NCBI RefSeq assembly: GCF_001679005.1
Contig: NZ_LXTW01000003.1
Span: 190,802 to 214,801, forward strand
DNA: 24,000 nucleotides
Direction of reading: 5' to 3'
From: Moraxella nonliquefaciens
GTDB lineage: Bacteria > Pseudomonadota > Gammaproteobacteria > Pseudomonadales > Moraxellaceae
The position numbers and the translations under genes were made by a program. Below the pieces are notes generated by a model that was not told where the DNA came from, searched no databases, and worked only from the letters and a program-made list of their open reading frames with translations. Shown here piece by piece: positions 6,586-7,959 of this stretch; within the stretch, counting starts at the first letter, position 1, and every line of letters begins with the position of its first letter.

Positions 6586-7959
6586 ATGCAAACCCAAGCC
6601 CTTTTTGACAACATCCCAAGCCATATCATCAATGAATTAAACCAAGCCATGCACAGTATTTATATTGCGGTGGCGTGGTTTACACGCACGGATATTTTTG
6701 AAGTGTTATTACAAAAAGCCAAAGCAGGCGTTACGGTACAGCTTGCCCTATCTAATGACCGTATCAACCGCACCGCTCCAATCCGCCATGATGAGCTGTC
6801 AGCAGTTGCCAACCGCCATACCCACTGGATAGGGGACGGCAATAAGCGGTTAATGCACCATAAATTCTGCGTGATTGACAATCAAACAGTGATTACAGGG
6901 TCATTTAATTGGAGCAAAAAAGCCGAAACGAGCAATCATGAAAACATCACAATCAGTCAAGATGAACTGTTGGCAAAGGCGTTTTGTCAAGAATTTTATA
7001 AGATTATTGGCAAGCCCATGCCAAGCGATGAAAAGCCATTGCCGATTGCTCAGATTATGAAACGCATGGAGATTTTAAAAAATTATGTCATCTTGGAGGA
7101 TTTGGACGACATTAGCCGTGAAAATCAAAAATTACAACAATTTGACAGCGAGCAGGACATTAGCGAGATTTATCACGCCATTAAAAAAATGCAGTTTAGC
7201 CATGCCATTGGACTGATTGATGATTTTATCAAAAAATATCATACGATTGCGGTTTATGCTGATGCTGATATTATGGCGTTAAAATTGGAAATTCGGCTAT
7301 TAGAACATGAAATTAATTTATACGACAGCGAAAAGGCGGAATTAGAAAAATTGCTTGCCGATTTTAATCATCAGCACAGCATGAATTTGGGCGATTTAAT
7401 CAGTGAAATTTTATCTTTACGAAAACAGCTTGCCAAACAGCAAGGCGACCAAAATGCCTATGATGAAGCCAAACAAGACGAGCAAACATTTAATGAGCAG
7501 TTGGATAAAGAAAAAGCCAGAACGCATTATAGACTAAATGCCGATGAACAAAAACTCCTAAAACAAGCCTACCGCAAAGCCAGTCAAATATGCCACCCCG
7601 ACCGTGTCAATGATGAACAAAAGGACATGGCAATGGCGGTGTTTAATGAATTGCGACAAGCGTATGAACAAAACGATTTAAAAACAGTGGAGCGGATACT
7701 TGATGATTTGCAAAAAGGGATATTTAAAGCTCGCTCGGAGACCGTCAGCCAAAACGATAAATTAAAACTCATCAAAACCCAATTATCCCAAAAACTGGAT
7801 AATCTTAAAGTTATCATTGATGAGATTAAGGCAAGCCAAAGCCATCAAGTGGTAAGCAGTATTGATGATTGGCAAGAGTATTTTGATAATCAAAAAATAG
7901 AGCTGATAAGGGAGCGAGACAAGCTAAGAGAGCTGATAAAAAACACGGACGCAAAGTAG
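6586..7959 (+). CDS. Fusion protein: N-terminal single-HKD PLD/Nuc-like domain, central coiled-coil, C-terminal J (DnaJ-like) domain
   Basis: 457 aa. The HKD motif HHKFCVIDNQTVITGSFNWS (aa 91-110, nt 6856-6915) fits HxK(x)4D(x)6GSxN. Aa ~150-310 are heptad-rich and charged. The J-domain helix II-HPD-helix III is LLKQAYRKASQICHPDRV...AVFNELRQAYEQNDL, with HPD at nt 7594-7602. It starts 10 nt after the LRR gene stop. Confidence 0.8.
   Translation: MQTQALFDNIPSHIINELNQAMHSIYIAVAWFTRTDIFEVLLQKAKAGVTVQLALSNDRINRTAPIRHDELSAVANRHTHWIGDGNKRLMHHKFCVIDNQTVITGSFNWSKKAETSNHENITISQDELLAKAFCQEFYKIIGKPMPSDEKPLPIAQIMKRMEILKNYVILEDLDDISRENQKLQQFDSEQDISEIYHAIKKMQFSHAIGLIDDFIKKYHTIAVYADADIMALKLEIRLLEHEINLYDSEKAELEKLLADFNHQHSMNLGDLISEILSLRKQLAKQQGDQNAYDEAKQDEQTFNEQLDKEKARTHYRLNADEQKLLKQAYRKASQICHPDRVNDEQKDMAMAVFNELRQAYEQNDLKTVERILDDLQKGIFKARSETVSQNDKLKLIKTQLSQKLDNLKVIIDEIKASQSHQVVSSIDDWQEYFDNQKIELIRERDKLRELIKNTDAK

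Follow-up and report, generated by a model that had tools for sequence, protein, structure and literature searches.

In a 24,000-nucleotide (nt) stretch of the Moraxella nonliquefaciens genome (contig NZ_LXTW01000003.1, positions 190,802 to 214,801; hereafter the window), we analyzed a gene at 6586..7959 that encodes a single-HKD phospholipase D (PLD)-like nuclease domain joined to a J domain, here called PLD-J, and found that, far from being a stand-alone oddity, it supplies the constant half of a module of two genes. With the gene directly upstream (5166..6575), which encodes a leucine-rich repeat (LRR) protein, it makes up one horizontally mobile cytoplasmic module. In this module, a scaffold of helical linker, J domain and tail (CC-J) is paired with a repeat protein that begins with a short conserved tag. 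We favor the reading, with a probability of about 0.5, that the module is a conflict or defense system, in which a split J-domain adaptor couples a variable cytoplasmic sensor to DnaK and to an HKD nuclease. The question thereby moves from the tethering of a nuclease to a J domain to the role of a J scaffold with exchangeable binders.

The coupling of the two genes and the exchange of the partner emerged from 82 distinct PLD-J loci, in which open reading frames (ORFs) were called and the neighbors clustered. In 57 loci, the immediate same-strand neighbor of PLD-J belonged to one single-linkage cluster, and the gaps to PLD-J were mostly about -40 to +30 nt; in the window, the PLD-J start codon lies 10 nt past the partner's stop codon. 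A hidden Markov model (HMM) of the N-terminal tag, searched against six-frame translations of all 82 loci (~1.2 Mb), yielded 65 matches, all of them on the PLD-J strand and none on the opposite strand. Direct neighbors of PLD-J account for 56 of these matches (40 upstream, 16 downstream) and the rest are second copies within ~2 kb; at least one match was present in 58 of the 82 loci. The 58 partner bodies scanned against Pfam included 19 with tetratricopeptide repeats (TPR) and 14 with LRRs, and WD40, PQQ-like propeller, WG-repeat and FISUMP-like bodies were assigned by sequence reading and regular expressions. When PLD-J was at least 90% identical between two loci, the partner bodies had no BLAST similarity in 17 of 27 such pairs (WD40/LRR/TPR/FISUMP-like), and same-class partners were only 25–55% identical. 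Because non-homologous bodies stand beside PLD-J proteins of at least 90% identity, we conclude from the sequence comparisons that the scaffold is constant and horizontally shared, while the binder is exchanged or quickly diversifying. The loci thus combine tight gene coupling and a conserved tag with swapping of the partner body. M. bovis has the same recG / LRR / PLD-J / RND (resistance-nodulation-division efflux) synteny with the LRR orthologue upstream; PLD-J is 85% and the LRR partner 56% identical to the window proteins. In Psychrobacter sp. P11G3, a different LRR protein is encoded upstream, and the pair lies amid helix-turn-helix, DRT2-type reverse transcriptase and type I restriction-modification (RM) genes.

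The partner in the window has the following parts:

5166..6575, forward strand: partner gene, encoding a 469-amino-acid (aa) LRR protein with an N-terminal tag, a Trp-rich helical cap and ~15 LRRs

5178..5255, forward strand: N-terminal tag ('N-motif'), partner aa 5-30, LIPTQTGLTLRRTDTLINITNKLLAQ, with T24 and K26 hardly varying between partner classes

5472..6469, forward strand: LRR array, a 66-nt tandem DNA repeat with 14.8 copies and 83% matches (Tandem Repeats Finder)

The LRRs match Pfam LRR_4 with E=2e-78; the sequence has no visible signal peptide and was called cytoplasmic. The tag is ~28 aa long with the core [IV]TNK[LI]L, and beyond the window it reads, for example, SLIPITSTGLVRVGNSIEVTNKILSE in a WD40 partner and QLVPVQNNQLARLDNTLSITNRLLFK in a TPR partner. 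Across 58 partners, its T and K reach a conservation of 90% or more, and the remainder reaches only 10% column identity. In an AlphaFold2 (AF2) model of partner aa 1-200, the predicted local distance difference test (pLDDT) score was 42-47 for the tag region (aa 1-31), while the cap and the LRRs were confident, so that the tag is predicted to be a free flexible peptide that is not packed on the LRR fold. Ten tag peptides had no Pfam match at E<=10, which left a supposed resemblance between the tag (…LVRVGNSIEITNKIL…) and the first half of AbrB/MazE swapped-hairpin domains unsupported. A faint similarity to helix IV of the J domain ('NDIATVNKILAEL') was put down to chance. A reverse search that started from the N-terminal 95 aa of the partner retrieved no more than 12 short Moraxella fragments. 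In Moraxella relatives, much shorter forms occur (120-167 aa, just 2-4 repeats), and the LRR repeat number looks unstable.

The scaffold gene and its parts are:

6586..7959, forward strand: PLD-J gene with ATG start, 457 aa, comprising HKD nuclease, helical linker, J domain and tail

6586..7008, forward strand: single-HKD (Nuc/NucT/Zucchini-like) domain, aa 1-141, without signal peptide

6856..6915, forward strand: HKD catalytic motif HHKFCVID-x6-GSFNWS, i.e. H91-H-K93-FCVI-D98-x6-G105-S106-F-N108-W-S

7045..7518, forward strand: helical linker, aa 154-311 (AF2), which holds the conserved start of the CC-J module, IMKRMEILKNYVILED

7540..7713, forward strand: J domain, helices II-IV, aa 319-376, with HPD at nt 7594-7602

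7714..7755, forward strand: conserved low-confidence loop GIFKARSETVSQND, aa 377-390, with F380, S384 and T386 invariant

7756..7950, forward strand: helical tail, aa 391-455, with a conserved DDW..YF motif (D428, W429, F433)

A previous sequence-only reading of this gene had proposed the order single HKD domain, helical linker, J domain and helical tail, and this order is borne out by Pfam and by an AF2 model built from a 44-sequence alignment (pLDDT 81.3). The ~160-aa coiled coil of that reading stands as a helical region, but AF2 gives it as a helical linker (aa 154-311) made up of short helices at 154-200, an 82-residue helix at 204-285 and a return helix at 289-311. The HKD motif was found precisely where it had been placed, and H91, K93, D98, G105, S106 and N108 are invariant in the 44 aligned homologues. 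Both domain assignments exceed the Pfam thresholds: PLDc_2 (PF13091) clearly, with E=4.2e-23 and 82.1 bits against a cut-off of 27 (aa 14-139, one PLDc stretch per chain), and DnaJ (PF00226) marginally, with E=2.4e-6 and 28.0 bits against a gathering score of 27.8 (aa 321-361). As had been supposed, the combination is without a characterized example; all homologues are annotated merely as 'phospholipase D-like domain-containing protein', and we found no description of a PLD and J architecture or of a J-domain defense system in the literature.

The PLD domain matched Nuc (1e-11), Zucchini/MitoPLD (5e-10) and also NucT in a sequence search of the PDB. Foldseek matches of the AF2 model against the PDB were confined to the PLD part (Nuc 1byr, E=1e-7, TM(target) 0.74; NucT 6ehi, TM(target) 0.74-0.76; Zucchini 4ggk) and identify a Nuc-type alpha/beta fold. 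These best matches in sequence and fold likewise consist of a ~140-aa domain with one HxK(x4)D(x6)GSxN motif. In Nuc, Zucchini and similar single-HKD enzymes, two identical chains together form a single active site. Whereas Nuc and NucT reside in the periplasm or are secreted, and Zucchini is anchored in a membrane, the PLD-J domain has neither a signal peptide nor a transmembrane segment, and, unlike in these enzymes, it is fused to a 310-aa helical/J-domain scaffold. PLD-J is also not a NucT equivalog, scoring at best 45.4 bits against a cut-off of 297 with the NCBIfam models NF010490-93.

In the J domain, C336-H337-P338-D339 are invariant in the homologue alignment, and the HPD follows a basic helix II in the setting LKQAYRKASQIC-HPD-RV. 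AF2 places helices at 319-336, 343-361 and 365-376, with HPD (337-339) between the first two. Nearly all homologues carry a precomputed PF00226 annotation, and in a PDB search the family profile picked up mL77, auxilin and Sec63 by their J domains (E 3e-4 to 2e-3), with J-domain matches extending to 1e-2. PLD-J had no DnaJ_C or DnaJ_CXXCXGXG matches in Pfam and its J domain is internal, so it is not a class A or B DnaJ; with the DnaJ subfamily and equivalog models of NCBIfam it scored 13-21 bits against cut-offs of 338-502. Class C (type III) J proteins such as auxilin, Sec63, HscB and DjlA likewise have the J domain away from the N terminus, and PLD-J resembles them in lacking the glycine/phenylalanine-rich, zinc-finger and DnaJ C-terminal domains. 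The two domains of PLD-J are a Nuc-like single-HKD nuclease domain and a class-C J domain. Class C J proteins are expected to direct Hsp70 to one specific client or site. Unlike in these proteins, the presumed client-binder of the module is a separate, exchangeable polypeptide that would join via the tag, and the scaffold bears a nuclease. To our knowledge, no J-protein with a separate tag-joined binder and a nuclease-bearing scaffold is known, and our literature search found no description of a J-protein with a separate exchangeable binder.

The complete HKD motif is present in 240 of 244 unique PLD-bearing family members and the HPD in 449 of 460 unique members of the whole family. Since both are intact in 238 of the 244 PLD-bearing members and the HPD is kept in 211 of 216 members that lack the PLD domain, both signatures are under purifying selection. 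The loop at aa 377-390 is a candidate interface, because it has invariant residues despite containing the only stretch of the model with pLDDT <50 (aa 382-388).

The CC-J part also exists without the nuclease. When aa 146-457 alone were searched against 1.84 billion representatives, 1,030 clusters were retrieved, and many of these relatives are ~300-315 aa long, have no PLD domain and begin at a conserved 'KIIKRLEILKN' motif. They are not truncated PLD-J proteins, as one contig has in-frame stops upstream. This stand-alone CC-J family (956 matches, in Chitinophagaceae and others) is named 'J domain-containing protein'. In three loci on long contigs, the stand-alone CC-J gene overlaps a downstream WG-repeat gene by 11-14 nt, and the WG-repeat partners begin with the same tag as the PLD-J partners, NKLIKFEGGLIKRVGNAINVTNKLLAKT; one of these loci has two such paralogues. 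The tag HMM, although trained only on PLD-J-linked partners, detects these WG-repeat proteins (E 3e-6 to 3e-3), and overall the PLD-less CC-J adjoins tag-bearing repeat proteins in three of the five contexts read. The tag thus goes with CC-J and not with the PLD domain. Because CC-J occurs without PLD and then often keeps a tagged repeat protein as its partner, we regard the J scaffold and the tagged binder as the core of the module and the nuclease as an add-on output.

Other arrangements were found as well. In P0197, CC-J is naturally fused to ankyrin repeats at its C-terminal side and the tag is missing, P0256 combines CC-J with a Cys-rich C-terminal domain, and P0260 has a weak Lon_C-like domain along with PLD and CC-J; the tag HMM had no significant match (E>0.3) in the scaffold or in the fusions P0197 and P0256. 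In Salmonella enterica (NZ_CP149222, locus L090, 6992-8167), a 391-aa stand-alone CC-J (WP_001033457.1, 'DnaJ family molecular chaperone') lies between pheP and rclC without a tagged partner. The same CC-J gene, with an apparent rclC, is found on the 1.5-kb record OR845880, labeled 'Escherichia phage ECO95 1-6-1' (L091), which looks like a Salmonella-like chromosomal fragment; the gene had no match in 5,426 E. coli genomes. At a Chitinophagaceae locus (L059, 2645-8480), extra genes lie upstream of a TPR partner and PLD-J pair, and the locus encodes a diverged 388-aa CC-J paralogue with a downstream 501-aa gene that has a tag-like N terminus, and two J-like proteins (208 and 325 aa) without HPD. 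Downstream, umuDC and a DUF262-like gene were identified by ORF sequence reading only.

The C terminus of the family varies. In 24 of 469 members, from Psychrobacter, Enhydrobacter and the M. osloensis lineage, the chain ends in ...DDIPF or ...DDDIPF (for example P0023, P0024, P0073, P0075 and the protein encoded at locus L009, 10001-11404), whereas PLD-J of the window ends in ...IKNTDAK without this tip. We take DDIPF to be the same tip as the C terminus of the bacterial single-stranded DNA-binding protein (SSB), which recruits RecG, RecQ, ExoI, PriA and others; its presence hints at targeting to the SSB interactome or to replication forks. Psychrobacter-type members such as P0108 and P0114 (551-584 aa) have a ~100-aa low-complexity C-terminal extension with a hydrophobic, transmembrane-like end and may be membrane-anchored variants. 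In the BFVD database, phage 'J domain-containing proteins' of ~230-285 aa, namely A0A7T8EPI4 (Erwinia phage pEa_SNUABM_5), A0A386K5Y3 (Dickeya phage JA11) and A0A8D9CF77, align structurally with the PLD-J model over 250-280 columns (E 2e-4 to 2e-3, high root-mean-square deviation), and they may be phage-encoded CC-J-like proteins; in the phage collection, no match was obtained at the sequence level.

The distribution of the module is patchy and mobile. More than 640 close PLD-J homologues occur in Moraxella, Psychrobacter and Ursidibacter, and when one genome per species was scanned, 514 species genomes had full-length relatives, from Moraxellaceae, Pasteurellaceae and many Bacteroidota to a few Desulfuromonadales, Ignavibacteria and Anaerolinea metagenome-assembled genomes (MAGs). 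Records of different Bacteroidota taxa (Lunatimonas, Paludibacter and a Flavobacterium MAG) have PLD-J proteins that are 90-96% identical, and within Moraxellaceae the pair is found at several different chromosomal sites. In the window, the G+C content is 0.30-0.39 in the 5.0-8.0 kb segment compared to 0.45-0.52 in the flanks. Among 50,697 phage and 72,556 plasmid records, there was no full-length copy, and other matches were generic PLD domains; one Salmonella stand-alone CC-J is on a plasmid-labeled record, but its neighbors pheP and rclABC look chromosomal. Signs of decay were seen in M. bovis CCUG 2133 (L008), where three ORFs of 76, 209 and 96 aa take the place of PLD-J, and in M. caprae (L005) and M. 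equi (L006), where the partner is truncated and fragmented, respectively. The 118 neighbors of 24 loci were heterogeneous, with defense genes at the PADLOC level in the minority; strong matches were type I and type II RM, Drt2, PD-T4-6 kinase-like proteins and PDC candidates, the latter including two proteins of PDC-S32 (E 2.5e-41) and others of PDC-S22 and PDC-S13. One module (L004) adjoins DRT2 and type I RM genes, and toxin-antitoxin (TA) genes flank stand-alone CC-J loci. Neither a dedicated Hsp70 or GrpE nor a GTPase formed a recurrent neighbor cluster in the loci.

How such a module could operate can be outlined as follows. The constant part would be the scaffold of helical linker, class-C J domain and tail, to which an N-terminal HKD nuclease is added in this clade, and the variable part would be the repeat protein, LRR in the window, acting as a target-binding sensor or adaptor. 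The tag may dock the binder on CC-J, possibly at the loop 377-390 and the tail beside the J domain; alternatively, the tag may itself be a DnaK-binding site that joins the DnaK recruited by the scaffold. The repeat body would then bind an invader- or stress-derived ligand, upon which the J domain would trigger the ATPase of host DnaK on the complex, so that DnaK in trans would replace the NTPase switch of STAND proteins. Clustering or remodeling could finally unite two HKD halves and lead to cleavage of invader nucleic acid or of self nucleic acid in the sense of abortive infection. The contact between tag and scaffold, the dependence on DnaK, the activation of the nuclease by dimerization and the defense role are all inferred. 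Since PLD-less forms exist, recruitment of DnaK to the target of the binder would be the common denominator, and cleavage would be an added output in this clade.

We favor a conflict or defense role because of the swapping of partners, the patchy distribution by horizontal gene transfer (HGT), the pseudogenization and the occasional defense or TA neighbors. Several observations weigh against it. The PLD-less forms have no recognizable effector, so activation of a nuclease is not a general output, and some stand-alone CC-J genes lack a tagged partner (a metagenomic copy, L085, and the Salmonella gene L090). No tag was detected at E<=0.05 in 24 of the 82 PLD-J loci, several of which are contig-truncated or have a divergent motif. 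The Pfam DnaJ score of PLD-J scarcely clears the threshold. The defense-island signal is present but modest, the neighbors in the window are recG and an RND efflux operon, and the defense model is computational throughout.

Some of these points suit the main rival explanation, namely that CC-J is a dedicated co-chaperone that hands tagged repeat proteins to DnaK, with the tag as a ChAD-like 'chaperone-addiction' signal and the PLD domain active in DNA metabolism. The recG/RND context in place of a defense island, the position beside recG and ruvB in Moraxella, which fits a separate DNA-metabolism role of the PLD domain, the SSB-like DDIPF tail of some members and the PLD-less pairs without effector are all compatible with it. 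In addition, the tag is disordered in the AF2 model, and its core [IV]TNK[LI]L with hydrophobic and basic flanks resembles DnaK-binding peptides such as NRLLLTG. In toxin-antitoxin-chaperone (TAC) systems, a terminal ChAD peptide makes the small antitoxin a client of the SecB-like chaperone from the same operon. The parallel is one of analogy only, since in the module a J domain provides the link to the chaperone and it is large repeat proteins that bear the tag. However, the six unrelated solenoid folds share no obvious folding problem, and the HKD catalytic residues are strictly retained. Swapping at 90-96% scaffold identity, paralogous arrays, patchy HGT and pseudogenization are typical of conflict genes and not of proteostasis, and we therefore consider a pure co-chaperone function rather improbable. 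The other explanations fit less well. If PLD-J were a self-contained enzyme, with the coiled coil dimerizing the HKD domain, the J domain providing regulation by DnaK or direction to clients, and the LRR gene incidental, the confirmed architecture (Pfam, AF2) would be accounted for. The long helix at aa 204-285 would be on hand for pairing, and the top structural matches Nuc and Zucchini act as dimers. Against this stand the tagged partner that is conserved next to the gene across phyla and contexts, the tag that accompanies CC-J even without PLD, and the tight or overlapping gene junctions, which argue for a common function; we regard an independent enzyme as quite unlikely.

A TA-like pair, in which the partner restrains a toxic PLD-J nuclease and DnaK governs the stability of the partner, would explain the tightly coupled two-gene operon and the TA genes near several loci, and a non-specific nuclease in the cytoplasm can be expected to require an inhibitor. 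But the partners are large (200-780 aa) with non-homologous bodies, unlike antitoxins, they are encoded upstream or downstream and in multiple copies, PLD-less versions contain no toxin, and M. caprae and M. equi keep an apparently intact PLD-J with fragmented partners, all of which makes this arrangement very unlikely. Finally, the LRR, TPR or ankyrin proteins might be exported effectors, with the tag as secretion signal and CC-J as export chaperone. The tag is at the extreme N terminus, and the LRR body resembles internalins, albeit far under the NCBIfam cut-off. We hold this to be hardly credible, because a Sec or Tat signal is lacking and secretion-system genes do not recur in the neighborhoods, the module is frequent in free-living Bacteroidota, and it is difficult to see why an export chaperone would be fused to a nuclease; the type IX secretion system of Bacteroidota moreover uses C-terminal signals.

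Among known defense systems, the closest parallel to the favored reading are the STAND (NLR-like) proteins Avs and bNACHT, which likewise combine variable TPR, LRR or WD40 sensors with a nuclease effector and in which the sensors diversify faster. For bNACHT25, a requirement for host DnaJ was reported (PMC12169576), which sets a precedent for chaperone-mediated phage sensing. Unlike in Avs and bNACHT, sensor and effector of the module are separate proteins and the J domain is built in and not borrowed from the host; family searches found no NACHT, NB-ARC or other NTPase domain in either window protein, and the partners are composed of the tag and repeats alone. Hsp70-cycle components also occur in predicted conflict systems: GAP1-N2 GTPase systems contain HSP70/GrpE and DnaJ-fused proteins (PMC7159879) and CoCoNuT systems contain the Hsp70-like CnuD proteins (PMC11090510). 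As in the module, these components are found together with coiled coils, repeats and PLD or other nucleases. The difference is that GAP1-N2 and CoCoNuT systems encode their own Hsp70-like ATPase and GTPases or McrBC, whereas the module encodes only a J domain. The likeness of PLD-J to DrmC of DISARM, DpdK of Dpd and MkoB of Mokosh is limited to the generic PLD fold. DrmC matched with 4e-12, but with 28.7 bits against 133 for NF038319, and the module has no drmA, drmB, drmD or drmE; DpdK matched with 1e-5, with 25.1 bits against 100 for NF041068, and there is no dpd cluster. PADLOC-DB v2.0.0 contains no system-specific model for the CC-J scaffold or the tagged partners, which match only at the generic level of DrmC/DpdK, TPR and WD40, and the stand-alone CC-J, the WG partner and the Salmonella homologue had no match at all.

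None of the individual domains of the module is new, and databases contain many examples of the architecture, though uncharacterized. Neither the split into a J scaffold and a plug-in binder nor a J domain in a nuclease-bearing, NLR-like module without an NTPase turned up in the systems compared here or in the literature consulted. More tentatively, and with some doubt, the module might represent a new class of prokaryotic immune system, in which a J domain harnesses DnaK as an ATP-driven switch in place of a STAND NTPase, exchangeable LRR, TPR, WD40, WG or ankyrin sensors plug in via a ~28-aa tag and the output is HKD cleavage or, in PLD-less forms, recruitment of DnaK. If this were true, it would be the first J-domain protein with a separate plug-in client-binding subunit and also the first case of a conflict system that brings a J domain of its own, and the core Hsp70 machinery would be connected directly with the cleavage of nucleic acids and with NLR-like variable sensors. 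As a compact and genetically tractable pair, the module also bears on the question raised by bNACHT25 and DnaJ of what part chaperones have in sensing infection. The conserved tag and swappable binder could also offer a natural template for steering Hsp70 or a nuclease toward targets of choice. Even if the function turned out to be proteostatic, this would be the first functional hypothesis for a family present in more than 500 species (~1,000 clusters at 50% identity for the scaffold).

Expression signals and neighboring genes in the window delimit the module. The signals are:

5130..5138, forward strand: possible extended -10 element TGcTAAAAT in the 58-nt spacer between recG and the LRR gene, read from sequence and weak

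5154-5158, forward strand: AAGGA Shine-Dalgarno sequence ahead of the LRR gene

7971..7998, forward strand: promoter-like site TTGACA-16-TACAAT with TG, 11/12 matches, for the downstream RND efflux operon

A consensus scan found no full sigma-70 site in the recG-LRR spacer. The module ends at 7959, as the RND operon has its own strong promoter-like site at 7971-7998. For the RND membrane-fusion protein, the longest ORF begins with a TTG at 7971 that falls within this site, and the real start is probably the ATG at ~8025 (MNKPTSNP...). The Hsp90 gene htpG is located 11 kb downstream of the module (19345-21288, forward strand); this proximity is probably coincidental synteny, because htpG does not accompany the module in other genera. 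An IS607-type element (12457-14168, reverse strand, G+C content ~0.35-0.38) separates the RND pump from ruvB and is not at the matching site in M. bovis (L001); its TnpB-like gene (12457-13596, OrfB_IS605 and Cas12f-like TNB) overlaps a serine-resolvase transposase gene (13575-14168).

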